A DNA stretch of 64,000 nucleotides from Brevibacterium luteolum (GCF_013004595.1 NZ_JABEMC010000001.1:248001-312000); one strand, 5' to 3'. Positions 2,489 to 56,668 are shown, counted from the stretch's first letter. Translations and numbers: made by a program. The notes: generated by a model from the letters alone, not told the origin.

Positions 2489-3745
2489 GTGAGCCACCCC
2501 GCATCCGCCGCCTCCCGGCAGCCCCTGCCCGGGGAGATCACCGTCCTCGTCGCCGCGGCCTTCACCGTCGCCATCGGCTACGGCATCATCGCCCCGGTGC
2601 TGCCGCAGTTCGCCGAAAGCTTCGACCTCGGCGTCACCGCCGCGACCATCGTCGTGAGCTCATTCGCCTTCTTCCGGTTCGTATTCGCCCCCGCCGGCGG
2701 CAGCCTCGTCAACGCACTCGGCGAGCGCCGGGTCTACATCACCGGCCTGCTCATCGTCGCCGCCTCCACCTTCGCCGTGGCACTCGCCCAGAACTACTGG
2801 CAGCTGCTGATCTTCCGCGGCCTCGGCGGGCTCGGTTCGACGATGTTCACCGTCTCGGCGATGGCCCTCATCGTCCGCATCGCTCCGGTCCGCCAGCGGG
2901 CCCGGGCGACCAGCGCCTACGCCACCGCCTTCCTCGTCGGCAACATCGCCGGCCCCGTCGTCGGCGGGCTCATGGCCGGGTGGGGGATGCGCGTGCCGTT
3001 CATCGTCTACGCCGTCGCCCTCGTCATCGCCGCCGCGATCGTGTGGCTGCGCCTCGATGCCACCCGCATCGACGTGCTTGCCACCAGCGCCAACCGCGAC
3101 GAGGCGACCACCGCCTCGGGTGCGGAGGCGCCGGACACCTCGCGGATGGGCTTCCGCGAAGCCTGGCGCGACTCCGCCTACCGGGCCGCTCTGCTGTCCG
3201 GATTCGTCCACGGCTGGGCGTCGATGGGCATCCGCGTGGCCCTCTACCCGCTCTTCGCCCTCCACGTGCTCAGCGCCGGACCCAAGACCGCCGGGCTGGC
3301 GCTGACGTTCTTCGCCCTGGGCAACTTCGCCGCCGTGCGCGTCGTCGGCCGCTACTCCGACTTCCACGGCCGCAAGCCCTTCATCGTCACCGGCCTCATC
3401 ATCATGGGTGCCGCAACGATCGTGCTCGGCCTCAGCCCGTCGGTGTGGGTGTTCTACGCCCTCTCCGTCATCGCCGGCATCGGCGCAGGCCTGCTCAACC
3501 CCGCCCAGCAGGCCGCGATCTCCGATATCGTCGGCTCGACCCGCAAGTCTGGAACCGTGTTCTCCCGCTACCAGATGGCGATGGACGCCGGCGCGATCCT
3601 CGGCCCGATCCTGGCCGGCATGCTCGTCGACACCAGCGGCTACGCCCTGGCCTTCGCGCTGACCGGGGTGCTCGCGCTGCTCGCAGCCCTCGCGTGGGCT
3701 TCCGGACGGGAGACCCTGCCCGCCGGCGAGGCGCCGGCCCGGTGA
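2489..3745 (+). CDS. MFS transporter (DHA1-like)
   Basis: About 12 hydrophobic segments; G.L...LGERR and GRYSDFHGRK motif A copies; GPVVGG motif C. Confidence 0.92.
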   Translation: MSHPASAASRQPLPGEITVLVAAAFTVAIGYGIIAPVLPQFAESFDLGVTAATIVVSSFAFFRFVFAPAGGSLVNALGERRVYITGLLIVAASTFAVALAQNYWQLLIFRGLGGLGSTMFTVSAMALIVRIAPVRQRARATSAYATAFLVGNIAGPVVGGLMAGWGMRVPFIVYAVALVIAAAIVWLRLDATRIDVLATSANRDEATTASGAEAPDTSRMGFREAWRDSAYRAALLSGFVHGWASMGIRVALYPLFALHVLSAGPKTAGLALTFFALGNFAAVRVVGRYSDFHGRKPFIVTGLIIMGAATIVLGLSPSVWVFYALSVIAGIGAGLLNPAQQAAISDIVGSTRKSGTVFSRYQMAMDAGAILGPILAGMLVDTSGYALAFALTGVLALLAALAWASGRETLPAGEAPAR

Positions 3746-3958
3746 GCGACCGGCCAGCCGGCAGAGCCGCCCGTTGAATGGTTCACAAGTTCGGTCACTA
3801 ACCTGGGGGGTGGTCAGGTGGGGGAAACCCGACCCACCCGGCCGGACACCCGCAGTGCCGCTGTGGCAAGCTGTCCCTAGGCTGAAGACAACAGTTGCCG
3901 CCGTTGGAGGCCGGCCCTCAGGCAGCCGAACTCCAACACCCACATGTGAAGGACACAT

Positions 3959-6900
3959 ATGAACCTGCTCACCCGTGTGAGTCTGCGCAACCGGGCGCTC
4001 ATCGCCCTCATCTCCGTCATCGCGATCGGCTTCGGCCTCATCGCCACCGCCCAGATGAAGAAGGAGCTCTTCCCCGACCTGCAGATGCCGCAGGCCTTCG
4101 TCACCACCTCCTACGACGGTGCCAGCCCCGAAGCCGTCGAGAAGGAGGTCACCGAACCTCTCGAAGCCGCACTGAACAACGTCGCCGAGGTGGAGAAGGT
4201 CTCCTCAGTCTCGATGGCCGGGTCCTCCCAGGTCATCGTCGAGACGAAGTACGGCACCTCGTCTGATGAGATCGTCCGGCAGCTCCAGCGCGCCGTCTCC
4301 CAGGCTCAGCCGCAGCTGCCCGACGGCTCCGAGCCCGAGGTGTTCTCCGCTTCGACAGCCGACATCCCGATCGCGATGCTCACCGTCACCGGCTCCGATG
4401 ACCCTGAGGCGCTCGCTCAGGAGCTCGACGACGTCGCCGTGCCTGAGCTCAAGCGCATCGACGGCGTCCGCGCCGTCGACGTCACCGGCGCACCGGTCAA
4501 GGAAGTCTCGATCGAAGCCGATGAGGACAAACTCGAAGACGAGGGCTTGAGTCCCGACGCGCTGGCCGGGATTCTGCAGGCCAACGGCATCCCCACCTCG
4601 GCAGGCGACCTCGTCGATGAGGGCAAAACCACCCCGGTGTCCGTCGGCGCCCGGCTGACCAGTGTCGACCAGATCGCCAACCTCGCTCTGCCCGGTAAGG
4701 ACGAACCGGTGCTGCTCAAGGACGTCGCGACAGTCGAGCTGCGGGAGGCGGACTCCCAGTCGATCTCGCGCACCAACGGCGAACCGGCGCTGTCACTGAT
4801 GGTGATGAAGAAGCCCGATGGCAACATCGTCGAGATCTCCGATGCCGTGGCGGAGAAGCTGCCGCAGCTCAAGGAGCGGATGAGCGAGAACGTCGAGTTC
4901 CACACCGTCTTCGACCAGGCGCCCTTCATCAAGCAGTCGATCGACGACCTCGTAGGCGAGGGCGTCTTCGGCCTCATCTTCGCCGTCCTCGTCATCCTCG
5001 TGTTCCTGCTCTCGGTGCGCGCGACGATCATCACCGCGATCTCGATCCCGCTCTCACTGCTTGTCACCCTCTTGAGCCTGTGGCTGAGCGGCTACAGCCT
5101 CAACATGCTCACCCTGGCAGCACTCACGATCTCGATCGGCCGTGTCGTCGACGACTCGATCGTCGTCATCGAGGCGATCCGCAGACGCCACGCCCAGGGC
5201 GGGACGAAGTTCACCTCGATCATGGGAGCCGTCTCCGAGGTCGCCGGCGCCATCACCGCCTCGACCCTGACGACGATGGCCGTGTTCGTGCCGATGATCT
5301 TCGTCTCCGGTCAGACCGGTGAGATGTTCCGGCCCTTCGCCCTGACCGCAGCGATCGCGCTGGCCTCTTCGCTTCTCGTGGCACTCACGATCGTCCCGGT
5401 GCTCGCCTACTGGTTCCTGCGCGCCCGCGAATCCCGCGTCAAGCTCACCCGCGCGCAGAAGCAGCAGATCCGCGCCGACCGCAAGGCCAACCTTCGGCAG
5501 TGGAAAGCCGAACGCAAAGCCGCCCGCAAGCGTCCGGTCTCCATCGGGGCTCCCGCCGGAAGGCATGCGACCAGCGAACTGCCGATCGTCGGCGAGTCCG
5601 CGGCAACCGCAGCCGGTGGTACCGCCGCGACCACCGCCTCGGGCACGGCGACCGGTGGGCAGCCCGGCAGCGAGGTCGACGAGCTCGCCGCGCTGCGCTC
5701 GCCGGTCACCCGGCTGCAGAAGACCTACGTTCCGTTCATCTCCGCCTCGACGAAGCACCCGGTCATCACTCTCATCATCGCGGTGCTCGTGCTCGCCGGC
5801 ACCGTGTTCATGATCCCGCAGCTGAAAACCGAGCTGTTCCCCGACACCGGGCAGGACTTCCTGCAGGTCGAGCAGAGCTTCGAAGCCGGCAGCTCACTGG
5901 AAGAGTCCGGCGAGCAGGCCGCGATCGTCGAGGACGTGTTCGACAAGTACGACGAGATCGAGTCCTACCAGCTCTCGATCGGCGACAACTCGATGGGCGG
6001 CGACGCCGCAGCCGGCACCCACCTGCTCAACCTCAAGCCCGGCACGAGCATCAAGAATCTGTCCGCGAAGCTGGAAGACGACTTCGAGGACCTCGACGGC
6101 GCCGGTGAGCTCACCATCCAAAGCGAAGGCGGCGGCATGAGCAACGACATCGAGGTCACGGTCACCGGCTCGGACACCGACAAGCTCGCCACCGCCAGTG
6201 AGGACATCGCCGATGCGGTGCGCGACCTCGATGAGGTGCAGTCGGTGACCACCGACCTGGAGGCCACCCAGCCGACCCTCGAAGTCGACATCGACCGCAA
6301 GAAGGCCGCCGAAGAGGGCCTCGACGAGGCCACCGTCGGCCAGGTGGTGCAGCGGGCGATGAACGGCCAGCAGATCGGAAACGTCGTCATCGACAACCTC
6401 GGCCACCGCGTCGTGCTGCACGCCGGCGACGTCTCGACGGTGGGCGAGCTCGAAGACCTCGAAATCCCCGTGACGGCCCAGGCGGCCGGCGGTGCTGGTG
6501 CCTCAGGCACCGGCCAGGATGGTATCAGTGACATGGGCCAGGACACCGGTGCGGGCATGATGCCCGGCGCACCGGCCCCAGCCCCCGCGCCGGAACCGGA
6601 GACGGTCAAGCTCTCGGAGATCGCCGAGGTCAATCGCACCGAGACGCCCGCTGAGATCCGCCACACGGAAGGCCAGCGCTCGGTCACGGTGACGATCACC
6701 CCGGCCGGCAACGACCTGGGTGCAGCCAGCCAGGCGGTGCAGAAGGCCGCTGCCGATGTCGACACCCCGCAGGGTGTGACCGTCGACTTCGGCGGTGCGA
6801 CAGCCGAGCAGCAGGAGGCGTTCACGCAGATGGGACTCGCGCTGCTGGCGGCGATCCTCATCACCTTCGTCATCCTGGTGGCAACCTTCAAGTCGCTGCT

Positions 6901-12515: not shown

Positions 12516-13627
12516 CCGGCAGGCGCCCGCGGCTCGATGCGGCCACGGCCGCGATCCGGAATGCGCTGCGCAGCTTCCTCGACACCGCCGTCGCCCGCCT
12601 GCCCGCCTCTGATTCCACGGCTGAGCCTGCCGCCGGCGATCCGGTCCGGCTCATCATCGCCGTCTCCGGGGGAGCCGACTCCCTGGCCCTGGCCGATGCC
12701 GCCGCCTTCCTCACCACCCGCCCCGCAGGCCTGACAGCAGCCGGCCGGCCCATCGAGATGACAGCAGCGACCGTCGACCACGGCCTGCAGCCAGCCACCG
12801 CCGAGGTGTGCGCGACCGTGCGCGATCACCTCACCGACCGCGGCCTGCCGACCACCGTCCTCACCCACCCGGTCACCACCGGACCGGAGGGCCTCGAAGC
12901 CGCCGCCCGCACCACCCGCTACACAGCACTCGACGAGCACCGCCGCCAGCTCGGCGCTGCCGCCGTGCTCACCGCCCACACCCGTGACGACCAAGCCGAA
13001 ACCGTGCTCCTCGGCATGGCCCGCGGGTCCGGCGCCCGCTCACTGGCCGGGATGCGGGCTGTCAGCACCGTCGCCGGGTGCCCGGTGTGGCGGCCGCTGC
13101 TGGACATCACCCGTCAGCAGACCACCGCCTCGGCTGCGGCACGGCACCTGCCCGTCTGGCACGACCCGATGAACGACGACCCCGCCTACGCCCGGGTGCG
13201 GGCCCGCCAGCAGGCATTGCCGGCACTCGAAGCCGCGCTCGGCCCCGGCATCGCCGACGCACTCGCCCGCACCGCCGGGCAGCTCGCCGCCGACACCGAC
13301 GCACTCGATCACTGGGCCGCAGGCGCCAGCGCCACCCACACCTCGGGCACGGAAACCCACGCGAGCCTGGCCGCGCTGCCGGCAGCGATCCGCACCCGCG
13401 TGCTGCGCGCCTGGCTGCACACGGGCACTGGCCGGGCTCAGGAGGTCACCGCGGCCCACATCTTCGCCGTCGACGATCTGGCCACCGGCCGCAGGCTCGG
13501 CAAGGTCTCCGTGCCAGCCGCCGCCGAGGTGGTGCGAACCAGGCGCGGACAGGGTCCGGCAGGCCTGCGGTTCCAGCCGGCCGACCGCCGTGAGAACGAT
13601 GCGCCACCGGCTGCCGATAGGCGCTAG
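12512..13627 (+). CDS. tilS: tRNA(Ile)-lysidine synthetase
   Basis: SGGADS PP-loop, VDHGLQ, EAAAR..RY, AHT.DDQAET, RPLL. Confidence 0.95.
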   Translation: MTGRRPRLDAATAAIRNALRSFLDTAVARLPASDSTAEPAAGDPVRLIIAVSGGADSLALADAAAFLTTRPAGLTAAGRPIEMTAATVDHGLQPATAEVCATVRDHLTDRGLPTTVLTHPVTTGPEGLEAAARTTRYTALDEHRRQLGAAAVLTAHTRDDQAETVLLGMARGSGARSLAGMRAVSTVAGCPVWRPLLDITRQQTTASAAARHLPVWHDPMNDDPAYARVRARQQALPALEAALGPGIADALARTAGQLAADTDALDHWAAGASATHTSGTETHASLAALPAAIRTRVLRAWLHTGTGRAQEVTAAHIFAVDDLATGRRLGKVSVPAAAEVVRTRRGQGPAGLRFQPADRRENDAPPAADRR

Positions 13628-14414: not shown

Positions 14415-16622
<2,208 letters not shown>

Positions 16623-16623
16623 G

Positions 16624-17187
16624 ATGGTCGACCAGCCGCGCATCGAGGCGGCGGTCAGGGAGATCCTCCTCGCAGTCGGGGAGGACCCTGACCGCGACGG
16701 CCTGCGTGACACCCCCGCCCGGGTGGCGCGCTCCTATGAAGAGGTCTTCTCCGGCCTGCACAAGGACGCCGCCGATGTCCTCAGGGTCGTCTTCGACGTC
16801 GGTTACGACGAGATGGTGCTCGTGCGTGACATCGAGATGTACTCGACCTGCGAGCACCACCTCGTGCCCTTCCACGGCTCGGCCCACATCGGCTACATCC
16901 CAGGACCCGAGGGCAAGGTGACCGGGCTGTCGAAGCTCGCCCGCCTCGTCGAGATCTACGCCCGCCGCCCGCAGATCCAGGAACGGCTCACCAGTCAGAT
17001 CGCCGACGCGATCGTCGAGCACCTCGAACCGAGAGGTGCGATCGTCGTCATCGAAGCCGAGCACCTGTGCATGTCGATGCGCGGGGTGCAGAAGCCTGGG
17101 GCGACGACGATCTCCTCAGCCGTGCGCGGCCAGCTGCGCGACGCCGCCTCCAGGGCAGAGGCGATGAGCCTCATCCTCGGCCGCTGA
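16624..17187 (+). CDS. folE: GTP cyclohydrolase I
   Basis: [30 protein letters not shown]. Confidence 0.97.
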
Positions 17188-17213
17188 GCCCACCTCAAGC
17201 GAAGGAGCAGCTG

Positions 17214-18110
17214 ATGCGCACCCAGATCATGGGCGTCCTCAACGTCACCCCCGACTCGTTCTCCGACGGGGGCCGGTGGTTCGACTTCAGTGCGGCCGTC
17301 GACCACGGCCTCCAGCTGCTGGCCAACGGTGCCGACATCATCGACATCGGCGGCGAATCGACCAGACCCGGCAGCACCCGGGTGTCGGCCGAGGAGGAAG
17401 CCCGCCGCGTCATCCCCGTCATCAGGAAGCTCGCCGCCCAGGGCGCGGTCATCAGCATCGACACGATGCGCGCCGACATCGCCCGCCAGGCCATCGACGC
17501 CGGTGCGGCGATCATCAACGATGTCTCCGCCGGCCAAGCCGAAGCCGCGATGCTCAAAGCCGCAGGCGAAGCCGGCGTGCCGATCATCCTCATGCACTGG
17601 CGCGGACTGCTCTCCGACGCGACCGCCCGCTACCACTACGACGACGTCGTCGCCGAAGTCCAGGCCGAACTCACCGAGCGCATCGAGGCCGCCCGCACCG
17701 CCGGAGTCGCCGATGAGGACATCATCATCGACCCCGGCATCGGGTTCTCGAAGAACGCCGAGCACAACTGGCAGCTGCTCGCCCAGATCGAACGCTTCAC
17801 CGAACTCGGCCCCCGCCTGCTCGTGGCTGCCAGCCGCAAACGGTTTATCTCCACCCTGCTCGGGGCCGAGAAGTCCGATGACATCCCGCTTGCCGACCGC
17901 GATGCCGCGACCGCCGCGATCACCGCGATCTCCGCCCAGGCAGGTGCGTGGGCGGTGCGCGTGCACGAACCGCGCGCCTCACTCATCGCCGCACAGGTCG
18001 CCGAGGCGATCAGCGCCCACCGGCCCCACACGCGCCCGCTGCCACTCGACCTGCCGGAGAACCCGGCCACCGCCTCGGGCACGGAAATCCGGCCCCCCTG
18101 GCCGACCTGA
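17214..18110 (+). CDS. folP: Dihydropteroate synthase
   Basis: GVLNVTPDSFSDGG, GGESTRPG, DPGIGF, SRKRF, VRVH. Confidence 0.97.
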   Translation: MRTQIMGVLNVTPDSFSDGGRWFDFSAAVDHGLQLLANGADIIDIGGESTRPGSTRVSAEEEARRVIPVIRKLAAQGAVISIDTMRADIARQAIDAGAAIINDVSAGQAEAAMLKAAGEAGVPIILMHWRGLLSDATARYHYDDVVAEVQAELTERIEAARTAGVADEDIIIDPGIGFSKNAEHNWQLLAQIERFTELGPRLLVAASRKRFISTLLGAEKSDDIPLADRDAATAAITAISAQAGAWAVRVHEPRASLIAAQVAEAISAHRPHTRPLPLDLPENPATASGTEIRPPWPT

Positions 18111-18176
18111 GCCCAGAGCGCGAAACCGCCGGGCGCAGTACGGTAGAGACCAACGACGACACGACAGGGAGACACA

Positions 18177-19145
18177 GTGGCCGACCGCACGCGCGCAGGC
18201 GACGCCATCACGCTGACCGGGCTGAAGGTCTACGGCTACCACGGCGTGTTCGACTTCGAGCGCCGCGAAGGCCAGGACTTCATCGTCGACGTCACCCTGC
18301 ACACCGACACCCGCGCGGCAGCCGCCTCCGATGCGCTCGTTGACACCGCCGACTACGGCACCCTGGCCGAGGACATCGCCGCGATCATCGCAGGTGAGCC
18401 GCTCAACCTCATCGAAACGCTCGCCGAGCGCATCGCCGATCACTGCCTCACCGTCGCGGATTCCGCGACCGTCACCGTGCACAAGCCCGCCGCGCCCGTG
18501 CCGGTCGCCTTCGACGACGTCAGCGTCACCATCACCCGCCCCGCACCCGAGACGCCGGCCGGCTCCCTGCCCGCGCCCGAGGCGGGGGACACCCGCGCCG
18601 AGAGCACCGGCCTGCAGGCGGTGCTCGGGCTCGGTGCCAACCTCGGCCAGCCGCTCGAGGCGCTGCGCGCAACCGTGACCGCCCTCGACACCCATCCCGA
18701 CATCAGCGTCGAGGCGTGCTCGACGGCGTTTGCGACGAAACCGGTCGGTGGAATCGACCAGCCCGACTTCACCAATGCCGTGGCGATCGTGACGACCGAA
18801 CTGTCACCGCTGCAGCTGCTCGGTGTGTGCCAGGGCATTGAACTCGCCCACGGCCGGACCCGTGAGACCCGCTGGGGCCCGCGCACCCTCGACATCGACC
18901 TCATCCGCTGCACCCGCACCGGCAGCCTCGACGACGCGGCCGCCGAGATCACCTGCGAGACCGGCCAGCTCGTCCTGCCTCACCCGCGGGCCGCCGAACG
19001 CGCCTTCGTGCTTGCCCCCTGGGCCCAGCTGCGCCCTGATGCCACGGTGGCCACCGCCTCGGGCACGGTGCCGCTCAGCACCGCCCTCACCCGCGCTGAC
19101 GACGGCGGCGGGCTGCGCGATACCGGTGAGGCGATCGGGTTATGA
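18177..19145 (+). CDS. folBK: Fused dihydroneopterin aldolase / HPPK (FolB-FolK)
   Basis: N-terminal GYHGV..ER..GQ.F.VD, DYG, LIETLA, HKP.AP (FolB); C-terminal GLGANLG, Q.DF.N, RWGPRTLDIDL, LPHPR..ERAFVL (FolK). Confidence 0.93.
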   Translation: MADRTRAGDAITLTGLKVYGYHGVFDFERREGQDFIVDVTLHTDTRAAAASDALVDTADYGTLAEDIAAIIAGEPLNLIETLAERIADHCLTVADSATVTVHKPAAPVPVAFDDVSVTITRPAPETPAGSLPAPEAGDTRAESTGLQAVLGLGANLGQPLEALRATVTALDTHPDISVEACSTAFATKPVGGIDQPDFTNAVAIVTTELSPLQLLGVCQGIELAHGRTRETRWGPRTLDIDLIRCTRTGSLDDAAAEITCETGQLVLPHPRAAERAFVLAPWAQLRPDATVATASGTVPLSTALTRADDGGGLRDTGEAIGL

Positions 19146-20154: not shown

Positions 20155-21989
20155 TGGCCCATCCCGAACCCGGCCAGCCCCAGAACGTCCAGCCGGACGT
20201 CCCGCCGTCGGTTGTCGACGCCCCGACCGGTGACGCCGGCTGGACGCGCGTCCACCCGCTGACCCCGGCGATCAACCTCGTCGCGATCATCGTGGCGGTC
20301 ATCGCCGGCCTCATCGCCTTCGGCCAGTCGGTCCTCGACTCGATCATCCGGGCGATCCGCGAAGGCCGCCCACCGGACATGGGCTTCTTCGCCTGGATGG
20401 GCCAGAACGGGCTGCTGTGGGTGGCCGCGGCAGCACTGGCTGTCCTGCTCATCATCGGGCTGCTCAACTACCTGCTGTGGCGGGCGATGGCCTACCGCGT
20501 CGACGACGAAGCCGTCTACCTGCGCGAGACCCTCATCAGCCGCAAACTGCGCTCCGCCCGCCTCGACCGCGTCCAGTCGATCGACGTCTACCAGAAGATC
20601 CTCCCGCGCATCTTCGGGCTGGCCGGCCTCGTCTTCGACGTCGCCGGCGGCTCGGATTCGAAGATCGAGATCGCCTACCTCACCCGCAGCCAGGCCGAGA
20701 GCCTGCGCGCGGAGATGCTCACCCGGGTGCGGGCAGCCAAGCAACGCACCGCGCCCGAGGCGCCGGGCACCCAGGCAGGCGCGCCCACCCCCGCAGACGG
20801 TGCCGTCGACGGCCAGGTGCCCACCGCCTCGGGAACGGGGGAGGGGACCGCGATCACCCAGCCGGATGTCCATGCCCGTGAGCTGCGCACCGGCGACACG
20901 CTCGGTGCGCGCGTCATGCGCGCCGTGCACGGGGCCGCCGGCGAGGTGACCGCCGATGCCGAGCAGACGCTGCACGAGGTGCTCGCCCCGTACCGGGTGA
21001 GCCCGCGCACCGATGCCGAGGGGCGGATCGTGCGGATCCCCGCCCACATCGTCATCCTCTCCCAGCTCTTCACCCTCGGGGTGATCCTCTTGGGGCTGCT
21101 GCTCATCGCCGCGGCCGGGTTCTTCATCGTCATGGCCGTCTTCTTCCCCGGCCGGATCAGCCTCACGATCGCGCTGAGCTTCCTGCCGGCGATCTTCGGC
21201 CTCCTCGCCTACGCGCGGAGCACCTTCACCAACGCGAACTTCTCCGCCAGCCTGTCCGAGGACGGCCTGCAGGTGGCCCGCGGGCTGCTGTCGACCTCCC
21301 GGCGCACGATCCGGCTTGAGCGCATCCAGGCGGTGCGGATGAGCCAGCCGCTGCTGTGGCGGCTGACCGGCTGGTGGAAGGTCGAGTTCAACATGGCCGG
21401 CGGGGAGACCGGCGACGGGGACGGCGACAACGTGCTGCTGCCAGTCGGCAGCCGCGAGCAGGCGCTCATGATGCTCGCCCTCGCCCTGCCCGATCCGCAG
21501 CCGTCCGACGGCATCGACGCCCACACTCTCTTCGCCGCCGCGATGTACGGCGATGAGGCTGCCAAGATCACCGATGCCGACCCGGCTGCGCTCGCCACTG
21601 TCGAGCAGCGCTTCGTCGGCCAGCCGCCCTCCAGCCGGTGGCTCGACCCGCTGACGTACAAGCGCAACGGGTGGACGGTGACCGGTTCGATGCTCATCAT
21701 CCGCTCCGGCTGGCTCACCCGCCAGGTCACCTGCACCCCGCACGCCCGCGTGCAGTCGATGCGCTGGCACCAGGGCCCGCTGCAGCGCCGCTTCGATCTC
21801 GCCAGCATCAACCTCGACTCGACCGCCGGGCCGATCGCCGCCTGCGTGCTGCACCAGTCGATCCCGGTCAGCTGGCAGTTCTTTTTCGACCACGCCGAAC
21901 GCACCCGCTCCGCCCGCGAAGTCCTCGACGGCCGGACACCGGCAGCAGCACAGCAGACGACACCACAGCACGAGGGAGGAACGGTATGA
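20151..21989 (+). CDS. Multi-PH-domain membrane protein (YdbT-like)
   Basis: W.RVHPLTP start; three RVQS/RIQA bPH_2-type repeats. Confidence 0.88.
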   Translation: MMAHPEPGQPQNVQPDVPPSVVDAPTGDAGWTRVHPLTPAINLVAIIVAVIAGLIAFGQSVLDSIIRAIREGRPPDMGFFAWMGQNGLLWVAAAALAVLLIIGLLNYLLWRAMAYRVDDEAVYLRETLISRKLRSARLDRVQSIDVYQKILPRIFGLAGLVFDVAGGSDSKIEIAYLTRSQAESLRAEMLTRVRAAKQRTAPEAPGTQAGAPTPADGAVDGQVPTASGTGEGTAITQPDVHARELRTGDTLGARVMRAVHGAAGEVTADAEQTLHEVLAPYRVSPRTDAEGRIVRIPAHIVILSQLFTLGVILLGLLLIAAAGFFIVMAVFFPGRISLTIALSFLPAIFGLLAYARSTFTNANFSASLSEDGLQVARGLLSTSRRTIRLERIQAVRMSQPLLWRLTGWWKVEFNMAGGETGDGDGDNVLLPVGSREQALMMLALALPDPQPSDGIDAHTLFAAAMYGDEAAKITDADPAALATVEQRFVGQPPSSRWLDPLTYKRNGWTVTGSMLIIRSGWLTRQVTCTPHARVQSMRWHQGPLQRRFDLASINLDSTAGPIAACVLHQSIPVSWQFFFDHAERTRSAREVLDGRTPAAAQQTTPQHEGGTV

Positions 21990-22885: not shown

Positions 22886-22982
22886 CCTCCCGAACGTGAC
22901 CCACGCCTCGGGCGCGGGCCCCGCAGCGGCAGGCGAACCTGTGGATTCGTTGACAGGCGGGCGCACTTAGTACCCTGGAGGC

Positions 22983-24515: not shown

Positions 24516-24647
24516 GCGCAGTCGGGCAGATGAAAGACCAATGCACATTGAGTCAGGCGACCGGGAGCTGAACGATATTCGTGTGATTCACACCCAGACA
24601 ATGTCGATAAAGATATGCAAAAGGGCCGTCAAGGGTTAGGATCAGTT

Positions 24648-24908: not shown

Positions 24909-24930
24909 TCAGCATCGACGAAAGGCTCTT

Positions 24931-25272: not shown

Positions 25273-25335
25273 CCCCAGGCCAGCGGCACTTTCTGTGCCG
25301 ACCTGAGCACCGCCTCGGGAACGGAGCCTGACATA

Positions 25336-25366: not shown

Positions 25367-25407
25367 GCGGTGTTGTTAGGGCGGATTCCCAGCCGATCCG
25401 CACAGAA

Positions 25408-25508: not shown

Positions 25509-28130
<2,622 letters not shown>

Positions 28131-28256: not shown

Positions 28257-31142
28257 TCAGTATCCGCTGCCTTCCTCGACGCTGATGACGACCTTGCCGT
28301 CGATGATCTCGGCGGTGCCGAAGACGTCGATGCTCACCGTATCGTCATAGCTCTCCGTTTCCCCGAACAGGCTGTATTTGCCGGTGATGAGCGCGGATCC
28401 GCTGGATTCTGAGGTGATGTGCCACTTCGAGGCCTCGTCCGGCTCGGAGCCGCCATAGTAGCCGTACCCGTAGCCGCCGTCGCTCAGGCTGATCTCCGGG
28501 TACTCCTCGATCGACCACTTGACGTCTGTGACCTCGGAGTAGGTTGCCGACCGGGAGCCGAACGGGCATCCGGCCGGCTCGGTCTCCGCCTTCCCAGCGC
28601 ACGAGTCCAGCAGGCTGCGCACCTGCTTGTTGACCTCATCGGTGAACGCCTGCGTCGGCGTGGCCTGCAGCACCGGCAGCTCCCCGCCGGCTTCCTCTGC
28701 GGAGGTGCCTTCGAAGAACGCCCGCGTCTGCACCTCGTCGGCCTCCAGATAGTCCGAGGAGTCGGCCAAGCTGACGGTGTAGAGCGCCGGGAAGGCCGGC
28801 AGGCTGAGCATCCCGTCGGCGGTCGGGACGGTCACGCCGTTGACGTTGACCTGGCTGAGGTTCGGGGTCTCGACGACGACCTGGCCGAGCCCCGGGGAGG
28901 CCAGCCGCCAGTCGTTGAAGAAGATTCCGCGCTTGCCGACCTTGCGCACGTCCATCGTGACGTCGCTCTTCGAACCGCCGAGGTCGAATTCGGCGGTGAC
29001 GACGGCGGTGTCGCCATCGACCTCCGTGTCGGTGATCGAGATGCTGTCCGGACGCGCGGCGGCGTTGCTGAGCACCTCGTTGGTCAGCAGTGTGCGCTCC
29101 TCGGCAGGCACGTCGACATCAGCTAGGGCCAGGGCCCCTTCGGCGTCGCCGCTGGAGAGCTTCGACAGGTAGGAGCGCACGACCCCGTCGGGGCCGTAGA
29201 GTCGTGAGTTGATCTGCCCGACAGCGATGACGCCGGCGATGAGCGCGAGGACGAGCGCTCCAGCAGTGATGCCCCAGATCTTGGCTCTGCGCCGGTCGAT
29301 CGGCTGCGGCGGGCCCATCGGCGCGGCCGCGTATCCCGGCGGTGGCGGCGGGGCGGCCTGCACCGGTCCCGAGGCGGTGTAGGGTGCCGCTGCCACAGCC
29401 GGTGCCGAGGTGGCAGGTGGGGCGCTCGGCGGAGGTGGCGTCACTGCTCCACCCGGGGCCGCTGGTCCGCTTGGGTCCGCCGGCCCGCCTGGGGGTGCGA
29501 CCGGGGTAGGAGGTGTCTTCATGTCCGGGTGGCGGAGCGCACCGCGCGGTTCACTGATGCCCAGCGGCTGGCCCCAGTATGGGTGGACGGCGCGACCGCC
29601 CAGCCAGGCGGCCAGCTGCGGCATCGTGAGCGCGATGCGGGGTGCGATCGTGATGACGAGGACCTCGATGAGCAGACCCCAGAGGGCGAAGATGAGGAAC
29701 GTCCACGGCAGCAGGCCGACACTGAGGTTCAGCATCGCCGGGATGTCGCTGCCGAGCAGGTCAGCACCCTGTCCGCTGGCCCGGCCGCTGACCTTGACTG
29801 GCAGAAGCACGAGTGAGAGCAGTCCCCACAGCAGGCCGAAGGCGACCGGCAGGTGCCAGATCGACGTCCACGGACTGGAGACGCCGGGCTGGTGGGCCCA
29901 GCTTGGCCGGCGCGTGACGGCTGCGGCGATCGCAGCGATGAAGACGGCCAGCAGCACGGCGAGCAGACCGAGCCACAGGGTTCCCGGGATCGTGTCGCTG
30001 AACATCGTGACGGCCGACGAACCGCCCTCGTGGCTGTCTCCGGCCAGTGCGCGGCCGCTGGCGGACAGGCCGCCGAAGTGGGTCAGCGCTGCCATCATGA
30101 GGGCGGCGGTGCCGGCGAGCAGCGGCACGAAGCTGCCGTGGACATCGAAGTGCAGCGGCAGGACGAAGAAGCTGACGATGAGGAAGATCGCGCCGACGAT
30201 GACGAGATGCAGCAGCGCGGTGCGCGCAGGGGCAGCGGCGTAGCGCAGCCACGGGAGGCCGGCGGCATCGCAGCCGCGGTGGTGGCCGAGGATCCGGCCG
30301 ATGGTCGTGGCGATGAGGATGAAGATGAGCGGCAGGAAGAACGTCCGCGGGGTCACGGCGGAGAATTCGAGGGAGGCTGAGAAGTAGTCCTCGGTGATGT
30401 TCGAACGCGAGGCGAAGATGAGCTGGAGCAGGAACAGCACAGTGGTCAGCGCCAGGGTCGTCAGGCCGATGCGGATCCAGAACCCCGCGACGGTGCGCGA
30501 GGGGTGGCGCCGTTCGCTGAACATCGACCACCACACCAGGGCGCTCGTGAACACGGCGGTGATGAGCAGCGGCGCGCCGGCGAAGTGCACTGCCGCTGAG
30601 GCGCTCAGCTCGTCGAAGGCCTGACCGCTGAAGCGCAGGGCGGCTGACCCGCCGAGGGCGAGGGCGAAGAGGATGAAGGGCAGCACGAAGCCGAGCGATC
30701 CGGTCGGCAGGTCCTCACCGAAGTCCGTGATGGCGTCGTTGATGGTGGAGACGACGATGACGGAGATGATGAGCGAGGCGATGAAGCCGGCTGCCAGTCC
30801 GATCGCCGCGGTCACGAGGCCCTCGCGGATCGTCGCCCCGTCGATGGGGCCCTGGCGGGCCGGGAACTGGCCGGTGGGGTAGCCGTAGGCTCCCTGCTGC
30901 GGCTGCGAGCCCGGGTAGGGCCCGGCGGGCTGGCTGTACGCCTGCTGCCCGTAGGGCTGTTGGCCGTAGACCGGCTGCGAACCGGTCATCGGCTGTCCGG
31001 AGGCAGGCTGGGAACCGGGGGCTGGCTGCGGGCCGGTGGCCGACTGCGGCGGAACGGGAGGGGGCGACGGGATGCCCTGCTGACCGGGGTTCGAGCCGGG
31101 GGTGTTCTCGGGTGGCTGTTCCGGTGGCAGCTGGTCGGTCAT
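28257..31142 (-). CDS. Large multi-pass membrane protein with Pro/Gln-rich N-terminus and acidic extracytoplasmic C-terminal domain
   Basis: 961 aa; about 11-12 TM segments, Pro-rich linker, one more TM, then an acidic beta-rich region; GGAG RBS. Confidence 0.85.
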   Translation of the reverse strand: MTDQLPPEQPPENTPGSNPGQQGIPSPPPVPPQSATGPQPAPGSQPASGQPMTGSQPVYGQQPYGQQAYSQPAGPYPGSQPQQGAYGYPTGQFPARQGPIDGATIREGLVTAAIGLAAGFIASLIISVIVVSTINDAITDFGEDLPTGSLGFVLPFILFALALGGSAALRFSGQAFDELSASAAVHFAGAPLLITAVFTSALVWWSMFSERRHPSRTVAGFWIRIGLTTLALTTVLFLLQLIFASRSNITEDYFSASLEFSAVTPRTFFLPLIFILIATTIGRILGHHRGCDAAGLPWLRYAAAPARTALLHLVIVGAIFLIVSFFVLPLHFDVHGSFVPLLAGTAALMMAALTHFGGLSASGRALAGDSHEGGSSAVTMFSDTIPGTLWLGLLAVLLAVFIAAIAAAVTRRPSWAHQPGVSSPWTSIWHLPVAFGLLWGLLSLVLLPVKVSGRASGQGADLLGSDIPAMLNLSVGLLPWTFLIFALWGLLIEVLVITIAPRIALTMPQLAAWLGGRAVHPYWGQPLGISEPRGALRHPDMKTPPTPVAPPGGPADPSGPAAPGGAVTPPPPSAPPATSAPAVAAAPYTASGPVQAAPPPPPGYAAAPMGPPQPIDRRRAKIWGITAGALVLALIAGVIAVGQINSRLYGPDGVVRSYLSKLSSGDAEGALALADVDVPAEERTLLTNEVLSNAAARPDSISITDTEVDGDTAVVTAEFDLGGSKSDVTMDVRKVGKRGIFFNDWRLASPGLGQVVVETPNLSQVNVNGVTVPTADGMLSLPAFPALYTVSLADSSDYLEADEVQTRAFFEGTSAEEAGGELPVLQATPTQAFTDEVNKQVRSLLDSCAGKAETEPAGCPFGSRSATYSEVTDVKWSIEEYPEISLSDGGYGYGYYGGSEPDEASKWHITSESSGSALITGKYSLFGETESYDDTVSIDVFGTAEIIDGKVVISVEEGSGY

Positions 31143-32214: not shown

Positions 32215-32759
32215 TGACCACCCGCAGCCAGGACACCGCGGCGATCGCACGCGCCACCGGCCGCAGGTGGGCCGAGATCACCGACACCTTCGCAGCTGCC
32301 GGCGGTGAGTCGCTGTCCCACCGCGAGCTCGCCGACGTCGCGGCAGGGCTCTTCACCGGCGTCGACAATCCCGACTGGTGGGCCCAGGGCGCGGCGGTGG
32401 CCTCTGAGCAGCAGATCGGCCGCCGGCTGCCCGGCCAGCGCGTCGACGGGACCTTCGAAGTCAGCGTCACGAAGACCGTGTCCGGTGATCCCGATGATGC
32501 GCTGGCGGCCTTCGAGGCGCTCATGGCCGGTCGCAGCGAGCTGGGCGGGATCCCCTTCGCCGAGGCGCCGGTGACCTCGCGGACGCAGAAGTGGCGGTAC
32601 TGGCGGGTGCCGTTGTCAGACGGCACCCGGATCGCCGTGACGATCGGCACCCGCCGGCCCGGCGCCTCGGGCGTGGCCGTGCAGGTCAGCCGGCTCACCG
32701 GCCCCGAGGCGGTCGAGACGTGGCGGGAGTGCGTGCGCAGTCTGCTGGCTGGGATGTGA
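32214..32759 (+). CDS. Hypothetical protein (DUF4287/SRPBCC-like)
   Basis: ATGR.W, WWAQG..V..EQ.IGRR.PGQ..DG.F..SV.KT pattern; TGATG coupling with the upstream gene. Confidence 0.75.
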   Translation: MTTRSQDTAAIARATGRRWAEITDTFAAAGGESLSHRELADVAAGLFTGVDNPDWWAQGAAVASEQQIGRRLPGQRVDGTFEVSVTKTVSGDPDDALAAFEALMAGRSELGGIPFAEAPVTSRTQKWRYWRVPLSDGTRIAVTIGTRRPGASGVAVQVSRLTGPEAVETWRECVRSLLAGM

Positions 32760-34443: not shown

Positions 34444-34481
34444 CGTCGTCGCTTACAGCTGCAGCCCGTAGGCTTCAGGTG

Positions 34482-43646: not shown

Positions 43647-44537
43647 ATGGCGATGAACTGGACGCTCGTGCAGCTGCGCGCCTTCGTCGCCGTCGCCGAG
43701 CTCGGCACCATGAGCGCGGCCGCCCGCGCGCTCGGTTACACGCCCGGGGCGGTGAGCCAGCACATGGCGACCCTGCGCCGGGTCATCGGCGCCGATCTGC
43801 TCGTCGCCGCCGGTCGCGGCTTCACCCTCACCGAGGCCGGCCGCACCCTGCTCGAGCGTGCGCGGGCGGTCATCGCCGCTGAGGAGCAGGCCGCCGAGGC
43901 GGTGCGCGGTCAGGACTTCGGTCGCGTCGGCGCGGTGACCCTGGGGGTGTTCGGCTCGGCTTCGGTCGTCGCCTTCGCCGCCGCGGCCAGCCGGTTGACC
44001 GGCTCGGGCGTGCAGGCCCGTGAGATCGATGTCGAGCACATGCCCGAGGCGGTGCTCGCCGGCCGCATCGACGTCGGCATCGGCATCGATTATCCGGCCG
44101 CTCCGATTGCCCCGCAGCGCGGGTTGCGGGTCAAGCGCGTGCACAGCGAGGAGTTCTCCGTCGTCGCCCCTGCCGGGCAGGCGCCGTCGCATGAGGAGCT
44201 TGCCGGTGGCACGTGGATTCTGCCGCCGAGCCGGTCGCTGCAGGGCCGGGCGGTCCGCTTCGCGATCGCAGGCCTCGGGTTCGCCGCCCGCGAGACCCAC
44301 ATCATCACTGACACCTCCGTGGCCCTGGCGATGGTGCACTCAGGGCTCGGCTACACGCTCGGCACCCCGGTCATGATGGCGCTCGCCCCGGGCGGGCTGC
44401 AGCTGGTCGACGGCACCGAGGCAGGCGGCCGGCACATCGTCGTCATCAGCCGGGAGGAGCAGGCCGACCGGCCCGACATCACCGCCGTCACCGATGTGCT
44501 CACCGAGGTCTTCGCCTCGGGCGCGGGGATACGATGA
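43647..44537 (+). CDS. LysR family transcriptional regulator
   Basis: QLRAFVAVAELGTMSAAARALGYTPGAVSQH HTH; LTEAGR. Confidence 0.93.
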   Translation: MAMNWTLVQLRAFVAVAELGTMSAAARALGYTPGAVSQHMATLRRVIGADLLVAAGRGFTLTEAGRTLLERARAVIAAEEQAAEAVRGQDFGRVGAVTLGVFGSASVVAFAAAASRLTGSGVQAREIDVEHMPEAVLAGRIDVGIGIDYPAAPIAPQRGLRVKRVHSEEFSVVAPAGQAPSHEELAGGTWILPPSRSLQGRAVRFAIAGLGFAARETHIITDTSVALAMVHSGLGYTLGTPVMMALAPGGLQLVDGTEAGGRHIVVISREEQADRPDITAVTDVLTEVFASGAGIR

Positions 44538-45153: not shown

Positions 45154-45957
45154 TCACGACCCGATCGTGAAGATGAAGTTCCAGGTCCCAGCCGCCACCG
45201 CCGCACCGATCGTGACGGCAGCGGCGATGATCGCACCGGCGACGAGGGCTCCGTCGCGGGGATGGAATGTCGAGCCCCGCGCCCACGTGCGGTTCTGCGC
45301 ACCGAAGCCGCGGCCCTCCATCGCCATCGCCAGCCGGGTGCCGCGCCGGATCGCCTGCACGAGCAGTGCGAACGAGGTCTGGAAGAACCCGCCGATCCGG
45401 GCGAACACGTTCCCGCCGGCCACACCTCGGGCCCGGCGCGCCTGCGCAAGCGTCTGCCATTCGGCGATGAACAGGGTCACGAGCCGGGCGGCGGCGAGTG
45501 CCGCGAGCACGAAGGTCGCCGGCAGCCGCAGGTGCTGGATGAGGCTGTCGGCCAGGTCGGTCGGGTCGATCGTCGCGATGAGCATGACCGCCGGCAGCGC
45601 GAGCGCGAGCGCGCGCAGCGCCACCGCAGCACCCATCGTCAGCGAGTCGCTGGTGAGCAGCAGAGGGCCGGCATCGACGATGACGGTGCCGGTCTTCTGC
45701 GACAGCAGCGCGGTGCCCCAGCCGGCCATGAGCGCGGCCAGCGGCAGGAACCACAGCCGCTTGACGAGCACGGCCAGGTCGAGGCCGGTGAGCGGCAGCA
45801 TGAGGATGACGAGTCCGAGCATGACCGCGGCGGAGACGACGTCGATGCTGAGCACGACCGCGATGGCGAGCACTGCACCGGCGGCGAGCTTGGCGACTGG
45901 ATTGCAGCGCACGAGCGGGGTCTCCCGGACGACGGGGACGAGGAGGTAGGCGTTCAT
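45154..45957 (-). CDS. ykoC: ECF transporter T component (YkoC-like)
   Basis: NPVAKL, ARRARG and AMEGRGF T-component motifs. Confidence 0.88.
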   Translation of the reverse strand: MNAYLLVPVVRETPLVRCNPVAKLAAGAVLAIAVVLSIDVVSAAVMLGLVILMLPLTGLDLAVLVKRLWFLPLAALMAGWGTALLSQKTGTVIVDAGPLLLTSDSLTMGAAVALRALALALPAVMLIATIDPTDLADSLIQHLRLPATFVLAALAAARLVTLFIAEWQTLAQARRARGVAGGNVFARIGGFFQTSFALLVQAIRRGTRLAMAMEGRGFGAQNRTWARGSTFHPRDGALVAGAIIAAAVTIGAAVAAGTWNFIFTIGS

Positions 45958-47438
45958 GCGCGCACCGCCTGTCCGCGGCCGAAGAGCATCCGCTCAGCGG
46001 CGATCGCCTGGAGGAACTCCGCATCATGGCTGACGGTCAGCAGCGCGGTCCCAGCATCGAGCAGCTCGCAGCTGAGCGCCGCGAGCTCCCGCCACGTGTT
46101 CGCATCCTGGCCGAAGGTCGGTTCGTCGATGATGAGCACCGGCGGGCGGGTCGCCATCATGCACGCCACCGACAGCCGCCGCTTCTCCCCACCGGAGAGC
46201 GTGTGCGGATGCGCATGCGCCAGCCGGGTCAGCCGCAGGCGTTCGAGCAGCTCGGCCACCCGCGCCTCGGTTTCGGCCTGGGCACAACCGGCCTGGCGCG
46301 GACCCAGCCGCAGCTCATCGGCGACCGTGGTCGTGAGGAACTGATGCTCCGGCTCCTGGAACACCGTGCCGATCCGGGCGACGAGGTCAGCCGCCGGCCA
46401 CCGGTGCGGGTCGTCGCGGCGGGGCGCCCCGCGCCCGAGGTCGAGCAGCCGCGGCGTGGCCCGTACCCTCCCAGCACGGGCAGGCAGCAGGCCGCCGAGG
46501 GTGAGCGCGGTCGTCGACTTGCCAGCTCCGTTGTGCCCGACGAGTGCGAGCGCCTGGCCTTCGGCGAGGTCGACGCTGAGGTCACTGACGGCGACCGGGC
46601 CACGGCGGGAGCGGGCGACGGCGAGCTTCTCGGCCTCCAGCAGCACCGCACCCGCCGGCCGCGGGACGCGCGGCTGGGGGAGTGCGGCACCAGGCAGCCA
46701 GACCCCAGCGCCAGCCAGGGTGCCGCGCAACGCCGGGTCGTGCAGCACCGCATCGGGCGCACCGTCGGCGACCAGCCCGGACTCGCCGAGCACGATGATC
46801 CGGTCGACGTGATCGGCCCAGATGTCGACCCGGTGTTCGACGATGAGCAGGGTCGCACCAGAGGCGGCCTGCGCGTCGAGAACCGCCTGGCACACCTCGG
46901 GAACGGCGGCCGGATCGATGTTGGCCGTCGGCTCGTCGAGCACCATGAGCCCGGGAGCCATGGCGAGCACGCCGGCCAGAGCAAGGCGCTGCTTCTGCCC
47001 GCCGGACAGCGCCGACGTCGGATGATCCCACGGCAGATCGAGGCCGACGGTGGACAGCGCCTTGCGGGCGCGGGCGGGCATCGCGGCCGGGTCGACGCCG
47101 GTGTTCTCCATCCCGAAGCACACATCGTCGCCGAGCCGGGCGAGCACCACCTGCGCGTCCGGGTCCTGCAGGACGAGCCCGGTGGTGCCCGAGGTGGGAT
47201 CCGGTGGGCGGCCGCCGACGAGCAGCTCGCCGGTCCGGTACCCGGACTCGGCCGGCAGGACTCCTGCGATCGCATGCAGCAGCGTCGACTTCCCAGCCCC
47301 TGAGGAGCCGAGCAGCAGGACGCGCTCACCGGCCTCGATGCGCAGGTCGATGTCGCTGACAGCGGCGCGCTTGCGCCCGGAGTGCCGCCAGCCGAAGCCG
47401 CGGGCGAGGACGTCGACGCCGCGGGTCGCGGCGGCCAT
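45954..47438 (-). CDS. ykoD: Duplicated ABC ATPase of ECF transporter (YkoD-like)
   Basis: Two Walker A motifs (GSSGAGKS, GHNGAGKS), two LSGG and two DEPT. Confidence 0.9.
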   Translation of the reverse strand: MAAATRGVDVLARGFGWRHSGRKRAAVSDIDLRIEAGERVLLLGSSGAGKSTLLHAIAGVLPAESGYRTGELLVGGRPPDPTSGTTGLVLQDPDAQVVLARLGDDVCFGMENTGVDPAAMPARARKALSTVGLDLPWDHPTSALSGGQKQRLALAGVLAMAPGLMVLDEPTANIDPAAVPEVCQAVLDAQAASGATLLIVEHRVDIWADHVDRIIVLGESGLVADGAPDAVLHDPALRGTLAGAGVWLPGAALPQPRVPRPAGAVLLEAEKLAVARSRRGPVAVSDLSVDLAEGQALALVGHNGAGKSTTALTLGGLLPARAGRVRATPRLLDLGRGAPRRDDPHRWPAADLVARIGTVFQEPEHQFLTTTVADELRLGPRQAGCAQAETEARVAELLERLRLTRLAHAHPHTLSGGEKRRLSVACMMATRPPVLIIDEPTFGQDANTWRELAALSCELLDAGTALLTVSHDAEFLQAIAAERMLFGRGQAVRA

Positions 47439-53589: not shown

Positions 53590-53590
53590 C

Positions 53591-54382: not shown

Positions 54383-54415
54383 CCCGCTCCCGAGGCGATT
54401 CTCCAGTCCCGGCCG

Positions 54416-55797: not shown

Positions 55798-56489
55798 GCC
55801 AGACCGAGCGCATCGTCAATGTCATCCGCCTGCAGTTCGTCAACCGGCAGCCGTTCCTGTGGGTGCCGCTCATGGTCTTCGGCTTCGCCATTGCGCTGTC
55901 CCTCGTCATCTACGCGATCATCCCCGAATCCGGGCCCAAGTACGGCGGGGCGAGCCAAGCGCCGATGTGGTCGTTCCTCTTCGTCGGCGTGTCCGCGATG
56001 ACCCTGACCTTCCCGTTCTCCCAATCGGTGGGCCTGGCCCGCTGGGAGTTCTACCTCGGCAGCCTGGCAGCGGCGGCTGTCACCTCCGCCGTGCTGGCCA
56101 CGGCGCTCGTCATCCAGGGCGTCATCGAACAGGTCACCGACGGATACGGCATCAACGGCTTCGTCGCCTACCTGCCGTGGGTGTGGGAATCGGGCTGGTG
56201 GAGTGCGTGGCTGACGTTCTTCGTCTTCACGCTCATGGCCTTCGTCCTCGGCTTCTGGGGTGCGACCGTGTTCAAGCGGTGGGGGATGACGGTGCTCGTC
56301 GCCGTCCTCGGCAGCCTTGGTCTCGCTCTCGCCGCTGCGCTGCTCGTCATCTCCCGCCGCGAAGCCTGGGGTGAGGTCATCGCCTGGTTCGCCACCGCCG
56401 GCTCCCTGCAGCTGACCGGCTGGCTTGCGCTGCTGACCGCCGTCCTCGCCGGCCTGTCCTACCTCACCCTGCGCCGCGCGGTGCCCTGA
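55794..56489 (+). CDS. ABC-2 type permease
   Basis: About six TM segments; coupled to the ATPase gene. Confidence 0.85.
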   Translation: MSQTERIVNVIRLQFVNRQPFLWVPLMVFGFAIALSLVIYAIIPESGPKYGGASQAPMWSFLFVGVSAMTLTFPFSQSVGLARWEFYLGSLAAAAVTSAVLATALVIQGVIEQVTDGYGINGFVAYLPWVWESGWWSAWLTFFVFTLMAFVLGFWGATVFKRWGMTVLVAVLGSLGLALAAALLVISRREAWGEVIAWFATAGSLQLTGWLALLTAVLAGLSYLTLRRAVP

Positions 56490-56668
56490 GCATCCGCATC
56501 GACCCGGCCGCCCGCGCCGCCCACATCCGGGCCAGCGGGCGGCCGGCGGCACCGGTTCCGGCTCCGGTGCCCCGTGCCCGAGGCGGAACCCGCCTGCGCA
56601 GATGGGCAGGTCGCCTTGTGCGACGGACACCGGATGAGCCGAGGGCCATGTGACTGTAGGATGAACCC

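Follow-up and report, generated by a model that had tools for sequence, protein, structure and literature searches.

A short non-palindromic DNA motif recurs at high copy number throughout the genome of Brevibacterium luteolum and, in clade-specific forms, across its genus. It was noticed in a stretch of 64,000 nucleotides (the window; GCF_013004595.1, NZ_JABEMC010000001.1:248001-312000), for which a preliminary description made from the sequence had reported 14 strict copies of CGCCTCGGG-NN-CGG and proposed either an uptake signal or a chromosome-organising site. The present analysis indicates that the motif is a genus-wide, non-polar signal that is maintained by sequence-level selection or drive, on the basis of its enrichment, conservation at the DNA level, lack of polarity, exclusion from mobile DNA, dialects, and co-occurrence with one enzyme. 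The best explanation, which is put forward tentatively, is a self-DNA tag for natural transformation or recombination, whose CCGAG core is likely methylated by a solitary enzyme resembling the Mod subunits of type III systems. No description of the motif or of the enzyme's target was found in the literature covered, which did not extend to most subscription journals or to REBASE.

The genome (2.97 Mb, 67% GC) is a draft assembly of 21 contigs, in which 2,493 genes with approximate boundaries were called with a custom codon model (85% coding). Its lysS shows 93-97% identity to some named Brevibacterium sequences and no more than 80% to the others returned, in agreement with a place in the luteolum/otitidis/gallinarum group. 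Strict copies number 505 genome-wide (253 on the plus and 252 on the minus strand), compared with Markov expectations of 5.1, 7.7, 19.4, 46.1, and 122.7 at orders 3, 5, 6, 7, and 8, respectively. Coding DNA contains 361 of them, against approximately 15 (11-21) after synonymous shuffling and approximately 32 (23-37) when the tripeptide context was kept (12 shuffles for each null). With 144 copies in approximately 405 kb of intergenic DNA and 361 in 2,536 kb of coding DNA, there is a 2.5-fold intergenic excess, and 71% of all strict copies are coding. Single-position scans gave a broad consensus, CRCCTCGG-S-NN-CGG, usually preceded by CCAC, which has 1,172 copies in total and 735 with G at the S position. 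The 2-nt gap is fixed (505 copies at gap 2 vs 4-29 at gaps 0, 1, 3, 4, and 5). The 3' edge is abrupt and the 5' consensus decays through a graded extension, A-S-S-Y-R-R-C-C-A-C, which is also found in intergenic copies. Part of this extension mirrors the core across a 5-bp centre; no covariation links the mirrored positions (odds ratio 0.94, P 0.83), which implies that the motif is not a base-paired hairpin. A hairpin RNA or single-stranded DNA element was also rejected as a candidate, the upstream flank folding only about 1 kcal/mol better than controls. Two kinds of reading frame, TASG and PEA/PEV, account for 322 of the 361 coding copies, and in both the third positions remain GC; the TASG peptide is 4.6 times, and PEAV 3.6 times, as common as residue frequencies predict. 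The codon nulls, the intergenic excess, and the protected synonymous sites described below support the earlier proposal of a DNA-level signal rather than favoured codons.

Conservation was examined by aligning to the genome three sets of DNA from close relatives, each of 139-380 kb and 87-91% identical; one lysS locus forms part of two of the sets. Among G/C third positions that are four-fold degenerate and lie within the motif, 15 of 294, 4 of 201, and 1 of 50 differed, whereas codon-matched expectations were 44-58, 28-29, and 8-10 differences; synonymous positions in the motif thus change 3-10 times less than matched ones. The free N positions were unprotected and behaved like background (8/54, 6/40, and 2/10). 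A decaying relic would give about half the background rate, and two of the three alignment sets were well under that. In a polarised three-species alignment (134 kb), 26 substitutions away from the consensus were found vs 60.4 expected, and along the long G057 branch of a second trio (71 kb) there was 1 loss vs 16.2 expected. A four-species polarisation, with 28 sites only, gave observed/expected losses of 3/2.7, 1/1.9, 0/1.7, and 0/7.9. Copies turn over mainly by point change: among 160 copies compared with G072, 105 were intact, 40 substituted, and 15 touched gaps. Some copies lie in short expansions that differ between species. The substitution rate near copies was not lower than elsewhere (0.142 near vs 0.124 far).

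Within the window, all 14 strict copies were recovered at the coordinates and strands first reported, including the 17-mer form at 5632, 18068, 19052, 20822, and 25308 and the four intergenic copies at 22904, 25311, 54384, and 56572. The estimate that chance would supply less than one strict copy per window also held (100 dinucleotide shuffles; mean 0.14, maximum 2). The coding copies do encode TASG(T/A) or PEA in the proteins that had been named (MFS aa208; RND aa559; FolP aa286/298; FolB-FolK aa132; PH protein aa199 and aa224; 961-aa protein aa589; LysR aa297/304), with two placements in need of correction: the copy at 19055, which had been assigned to the FolB-FolK linker, lies in the C-terminal part of FolB-FolK (aa293/322), and that at 32698 falls within an uncharacterised 181-aa gene. 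The CACCTCGG variant, which had not been recognised as such, is a full member of the motif (230 genome copies vs 5.5 expected). As for ftsH, lysS, clpC, and prpDBC, in whose conserved cores no copy had been seen, the broad 14-mer is indeed absent from all six genes, but the bare 8-mer occurs 0-4 times per gene. The copies and variants, in window coordinates, are as follows.

3102..3125, plus strand: motif copy with the 5' extension AGGCGACCAC, in the MFS central loop (TASGA)
4329..4342, minus strand: CACCTCGGG variant reading SEPEV, in the RND gene
5632..5648, plus strand: 17-mer copy, in the RND transporter insert (TASGT)
13339..13352, plus strand: CACCTCGGG variant reading TSGT, in tilS
18061..18084, plus strand: 17-mer copy with the ACCCGGCCAC extension, in the FolP C-terminal tail
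18571..18584, minus strand: strict copy, antisense PEA, in the FolB-FolK linker
19052..19068, plus strand: 17-mer copy, in the C-terminal part of FolB-FolK
20749..20762, minus strand: strict copy (PEA), left half of an inverted pair, in the linker of a bPH_2-domain protein
20822..20838, plus strand: 17-mer copy (TASGT), right half of that pair, whose starts are separated by 76 bp, in the same linker
22904..22917, plus strand: strict copy, intergenic, 18 nt past a stop codon and upstream of lysS
25308..25324, plus strand: 17-mer copy, intergenic, between lsr2 and clpC
29363..29376, minus strand: strict copy (TASGP), in the Pro/Ala-rich linker of the 961-aa protein
32698..32711, minus strand: strict copy (GPEAV), close to the 3' end of the 181-aa gene
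44513..44526, plus strand: strict copy, in the LysR C-terminal tail
45423..45436, plus strand: CACCTCGGG variant in a minority reading frame
46893..46906, plus strand: CACCTCGGG variant, antisense PEV
54384..54397, minus strand: strict copy, intergenic, directly after a stop codon
56572..56585, minus strand: strict copy, intergenic, with an AGGCG mirror half-site upstream

The lsr2 gene lies at 24931-25272, between lysS and clpC, with an intergenic copy just downstream. In a comparison over 15001-34500, three of four conspecific runs contain about 1 kb of extra DNA at 28217-28257, between clpC and the gene for the 961-aa protein, and the same three are without 32263-32776.

With regard to chromosomal placement, Chi and KOPS sites show orientation skew relative to replication, matS, SlmA, and Noc sites are confined to or excluded from the terminus domain, and REP (repetitive extragenic palindromic) elements and their kin are mostly intergenic hairpins whose arms covary and which are linked to an HUH or small GIY-YIG nuclease. 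Based on inferred replichores, the motif shows no polarity (leading/lagging counts 181/165 for strict copies, 258/244 for the G-variant, and 1,205/1,172 for the 8-mer), and orientation skew was also not found in stretches of four complete relatives. The Chi-like alternative raised in the preliminary description fails on this point. Spacing is near random (coefficient of variation 1.04), and the largest cluster comprises six copies in 2.5 kb, with no dense group around any candidate gene. Density is about 2-fold lower on the terminus-side contigs C15 and C16, with 2-7 copies per full 25 kb across C15, the skew switch included; the matS/SlmA/Noc type of explanation is weakly disfavoured, there being neither terminus exclusion nor confinement.

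Copies concentrate in permissive parts of the shared genome. Their density in DNA that relatives share (184 in 587 kb) is four times that in unshared DNA (10 in 130 kb), and it is lowest in genes with low third-position GC. Protein linkers and gene 3' ends are the favoured sites. In 98 distant orthologue pairs from 60 genes, motif-coded residues were 31% identical (54% elsewhere) and 30% gapped or unaligned (10% elsewhere). Of 113 intergenic copies, 95 crowd past stop codons in either orientation, with 1.33/kb in convergent and 0.53/kb in divergent gaps. Head-to-head pairs within 150 bp number 41 among 1,172 copies, some forming perfect hairpins after stops; inverted pairs peak at 19 bp (11) and 37-38 bp (9) and direct pairs at 20-21 bp (15), and tandem repeats contain only 26 of the 1,172 copies. 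A 40-kb prophage of host-like GC (C1:44000-84000) contains no copies vs 9.9-15.8 expected, and no host-dialect copies were found in the Brevibacterium phages AGM1, Rousseau, and Cantare. The prophage terminase is 73% identical to that of AGM1. The 90.7-kb Cantare genome is entirely without GGACC/GGTCC, GCCGC/GCGGC, and CCAGG/CCTGG, which suggests strong restriction avoidance.

Beyond this genome, related dialects were observed as clade-specific flanks around a constant R-CCTCGG, and at least five flank dialects could be distinguished. Among 72 family genomes, four carry the CCAC-type 18-mer in 221-341 copies, and none of the remaining 68 has more than 15. A second major dialect, CCRCCTCGGYGA, reaches 599-1,394 copies in each of 42 genus genomes out of 69, with counts of 6-169 for the remaining 27; RCCTCGGGMRCGG is complementary in distribution, with at most 22 copies in the 42 CCRCCTCGGYGA genomes and at least 73 in 18 of the other 27. 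Further forms include the GGCCTCGG dialect (G020, G065, and G083), the CACCTCGG dialect (G058), and G022, which has 310 strict cores, none with CCAC, and shares the flank GGG-CGCCTCGG with G010. Three genus genomes (G011, G061, and G080) have neither major dialect. Several genomes, G018, G046, G063, and G081 among them, and the other three family genera were characterised by pattern counts only. Enrichment was not found in any of 282 genomes outside the family (at most 45 copies), and CCRCCTCGGYGA reached at most about 47/Mb in 188 other-family genomes vs 158-340/Mb in genus carriers. In trees of Tad proteins (11 genomes) and of lysS (29 rows), the dialects track clades. The lysS match in G058, G074, and G004 has one TAG stop with an open frame of 503 aa, which probably reflects an N-terminal overlap beyond the true gene.

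A candidate writer of the signal was identified in the only N6/N4 methyltransferase family match in the genome (C19:71088-72512, minus strand), in addition to which two C5 methyltransferase matches are present. Its DPPY and FAGSGT motifs are intact, and it resembles type III Mod subunits in sequence and predicted fold, being 100-170 residues shorter. In six of six loci the gene lies divergently to the same oxidoreductase; in this genome an HNH gene has been inserted there. No Res gene adjoins it in any of the six neighbourhoods; Res was also not found with one Res query in five of five genomes, a search that had no positive control. Of the 69 genus genomes, 66 have the enzyme, 65 of them as a single copy; it is missing from G011, G061, and G080, as well as from three of three other family genera. 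Its recognition domain is 64-77% identical between Brevibacterium clades, and is absent from all 374 other-family genomes of the order that were searched. Elsewhere it is uncommon: 71 representatives carry it, and many of these have about 620 aa, as full Mod subunits do. Homologues on plasmids or phages reach only 30-41% identity. One homologue of 441 aa (P0119/P0129), which shares the recognition domain at 51% identity, is named from a bird-gut spirochaete, and no locus for P0119 was found in metagenome contigs. In YGA-dialect genomes (e.g., G016, L232:4202-5959), the neighbouring oxidoreductase has an in-frame insertion of about 100-200 residues near its middle, as judged from two half-matches in one 500-680-aa frame.

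Several observations connect this enzyme with CCGAG, which is read on the strand opposite to CTCGG. The ratio of CRCCTCGG to its reversed control was 9.5-10.1 in four small enzyme-bearing genomes vs 3.4-4.8 in three without the enzyme, at similar control counts. CCGAGG-YG is enriched in most sampled genomes, and CCGAGA is depleted (0.08-0.81) in 16 of 17 sampled enzyme-bearing genomes, the outgroup pool standing at 1.08. In G003, G065, and G083, CCGAG falls to about half, a drop that CCGAT and CCGAA do not show. Between species, CCGAG was lost from 6-11% of full-context sites vs 13-49% of sites in non-motif contexts. Phages do not avoid CCGAG (ratios 1.13, 0.98, and 0.79 in AGM1, Rousseau, and Cantare), and therefore it is not a restriction target. 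The solitary Mod-like enzyme is accordingly predicted to methylate the CCGAG core. A Brevibacterium casei system is listed, in the accessible part of the source, with the different site GAACCC as a putative N4-methylcytosine type III restriction-modification system (PMC8259958). Among the strongly affected genomes, G065, G003, and G083 have CCGAGA ratios of 0.08-0.22, and G065 and G020 also avoid CCGAC; GCCCAC/GCCCAG are enriched alongside CCGAG depletion, perhaps as a synonymous escape or a second motif.

The genome also possesses two Tad/Flp loci (C1:193-198 kb and C18:56-61 kb), comEA-comEC (C16:91-94 kb), and dprA (C1:630 kb). In Micrococcus luteus, transformation requires two tad loci and ComEC, according to the available portion of PMC4322843. 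In a TadG-like minor pilin (C18:60780-61241), a variable segment is rich in arginine in the two aligned genomes with the most motif copies, which hints weakly at a reader.

The proposed self-DNA tag would operate as follows. The Mod-like enzyme may methylate CCGAG on one strand, probably at the A, and the marked core, when set in a particular flank, would be preferred by a reader that acts either in Tad/ComEA/ComEC uptake or in a later recombination step. Repeated uptake and recombination of conspecific DNA could then pull permissive sites toward that flank, as has been modelled for DNA uptake sequences (DUS) and uptake signal sequences (USS). Divergence of the reader might give rise to the dialects, and some inverted pairs may have been co-opted as terminators. 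The earlier interpretation is partly supported, in that occurrence on both strands, absence of polarity, permissive sites, shared DNA, and dialects all fit the analogy with uptake signals; the reader protein and the function are parts that we infer.

A number of results weigh against this explanation. On the side of conservation, the short branches G000 (7 losses vs 7.3 expected) and G047 (4 vs 6.5) of the second trio show no loss deficit, and gains to the consensus (7 vs 1.6) were not above those of control motifs (5 vs 2.1 and 6 vs 2.6). Genomes with DUS/USS also have more frequent inverted pairs. The genomes without the enzyme all fall in a single long-branch clade (100/100), so the correlation between enzyme and dialect amounts to about two independent events. 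In that clade, the oxidoreductase neighbour is missing or only paralogue-like, which makes deletion of the locus in a reduced genome possible, although G063 retains the enzyme in the absence of this neighbour; the distribution of the enzyme will also be that of other genus-core genes. The clade retains some signal (CCGAGGYG 1.84 and 1.38 times the null and CCGAG 0.83 and 0.76, in 36 kb of coding DNA each), and CCGAGA is at 0.59-0.88 in enzyme-less samples and 0.80 in three other genera pooled. Conversely, G064 has the enzyme yet shows no CCGAGA depletion and little 8-mer excess (60 kb). In G003, G065, and G083, the depletion of CCGAG to about half hints at a cost, which plain uptake drive leaves unexplained. 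No Brevibacterium methylome naming a CCGAG site was found in the literature covered, including the supplements of PMC4752239. As for uptake, all 69 genus genomes, motif-less ones included, have ComEC and Tad ATPases, which hence do not discriminate: the competence genes permit, but do not prove, an uptake role. No dialect-linked feature was obvious in Tad minor pilin alignments of 8-10 genomes, and no reader was identified in them.

The strongest rival, doubtful but to be taken seriously, is an intracellular HIP1-like site (highly iterated palindrome 1), at which CCGAG is marked and a cytoplasmic repair, recombination, or nucleoid protein, possibly a dimer, acts in chromosome maintenance rather than uptake. 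It would account equally for the enrichment, conservation, and enzyme co-occurrence. There is a weak mirror half-site 5 bp upstream, with AGGYG at -10 in 31 of 209 intergenic copies and the full inverted 8-mer at -13 in 29 of 735, and arms without covariation are expected of a protein dimer; the lower terminus-side density and the context-dependent CCGAG depletion, which fits biased repair, point the same way. However, the motif shows no polarity, no domain confinement, and random spacing, and substitution rates are not lower near copies. Moreover, sites of SlmA, Noc, and matS number in the tens per genome, which the approximately 1,000 sites here far exceed.

It is less likely that the motif is a methylation-independent uptake sequence, read by a Tad minor pilin or ComEA, and that the methyltransferase is an unrelated genus-core gene whose distribution matches by chance. 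All DUS/USS-like genomic traits, as well as dialects that follow phylogeny, would be retained, and the enzyme correlation would reduce to one loss plus absence outside the genus. Nevertheless, sequence-specific methyltransferases of the type III Mod kind are usually patchy in distribution, yet this one is a single-copy gene in nearly all carriers with a conserved recognition domain, and the unit that is enriched or avoided, the asymmetric pentamer CCGAG, matches the asymmetric 4-6-mers that type III Mod enzymes target.

Improbable, and largely refuted, is a selfish short repeat (REP-like, as the preliminary description had considered, or an Ssn/NTS-like hairpin) that was spread by a nuclease or slippage and is now decaying. 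The abrupt 3' edge with a decaying 5' consensus, the preferred pair spacings, and the copies in species-variable expansions are in its favour. In contrast, the motif is mostly coding, seldom lies in tandem repeats, shows no arm covariation, and has no hotspot at a candidate gene; the Y1 transposase (PF01797) was not found in the genome, and conservation is stronger than the two-fold that a decaying relic would show, with turnover mostly by substitution. An origin from an Ssn nuclease was rejected as well, because both GIY-YIG matches lie in 592-642-aa frames rather than in small stand-alone genes. Finally, a restriction-site or codon/peptide artefact, suggested by the two dominant frames and inflated peptides, is refuted as the main cause and has hardly any probability left, given the codon nulls, the intergenic copies, high-GC relatives outside the genus without the motif, the presence of CCGAG in phages even though Cantare lacks other pentamers, and the absence of Res beside the enzyme.

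In every genomic feature tested other than frequent terminator pairs, the proposed self-DNA tag resembles the DUS of Neisseriaceae and the USS of Pasteurellaceae, as these are described in the available parts of the cited sources: both are non-palindromic, on both strands, of high copy number, conserved in the permissive shared genome, frame-biased with a few inflated peptides, and absent from unshared genes (PMC2397512; PMC2817400), with dialects by clade around a constant core and intergenic copies near gene ends (PMC3630211; 10.1101/2025.10.24.684340). Unlike their bearers, which use type IVa pili with ComP or PpdA, Brevibacterium is an actinobacterium, Gram-positive and equipped with Tad/Flp pili. 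Its motif is also sparser (0.25-0.4/kb), has a graded consensus that spans about 24 bp and a 2-nt gap of fixed length, seldom forms inverted pairs, and is accompanied by a methyltransferase. In Campylobacter jejuni, import is restricted to self DNA that the solitary adenine methyltransferase CtsM has marked at RAATTY (PMC10046745); this site is a 6-bp palindrome for which the accessible part of that report describes no flank dialects, whereas the Brevibacterium enzyme is a shortened type III Mod, with methylation predicted, an asymmetric core, and long, conserved, clade-specific flanks. HIP1, likewise a highly iterated short word tied to a methyltransferase, boosts transformation of Synechococcus PCC 7002 more than 100-fold when its sites are methylated, as reported in the available part of 10.1101/2024.09.10.611283, but it is an 8-bp palindrome, while the Brevibacterium motif is asymmetric, gapped, and 12-24 bp long.

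The enzyme itself has its best sequence and fold matches among type III Mod subunits (EcoP15I Mod 4ZCF, Helicobacter pylori 6K0W, and Mbo45V 7DSU), with which it shares the beta-class order DPPY...FAGSGT and a recognition domain in between. It differs in length (about 400-500 vs 570-640 aa), in having no adjoining Res, in being a fixed, syntenic genus-core gene, and in a predicted site that phages do not avoid. Chi, KOPS, matS, SlmA/Noc sites, REP/BIME (bacterial interspersed mosaic element), and Ssn-NTS are also dispersed chromosomal words, some of them within genes. The Brevibacterium motif lacks the replichore polarity of Chi and KOPS and the domain confinement of matS, SlmA, and Noc sites; unlike REP and NTS, it is mostly coding, with no hairpin covariation and no linked nuclease (for NTS, the accessible part of PMC11893778).

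Dialect-bearing, sequence-specific uptake is described for two Gram-negative families in the literature covered, and a DUS-like word with dialects throughout an actinobacterial genus, if true, would be of independent origin, with a different pilus (Tad/Flp) and a possible epigenetic writer, to be set beside DUS/USS, CtsM, and HIP1. It is conceivable, though rather speculative, that this is an independent third species-recognition system for DNA uptake and the first in Gram-positives, combining a domesticated type III writer, a Tad/ComE reader, and dialects that restrict gene flow from clade to clade, cheese-ripening species among them. The genus offers a natural experiment on the rise of iterated words, with one conserved enzyme, at least five flank dialects, and one clade without the enzyme or a clear dialect. 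Even if the motif acts inside the cell, approximately 1,000 protected copies that reshape linker peptides would represent an undescribed genome-wide signal. In practical terms, adding the right dialect in methylated form may be worth trying for the transformation of cheese-ripening Brevibacterium strains.

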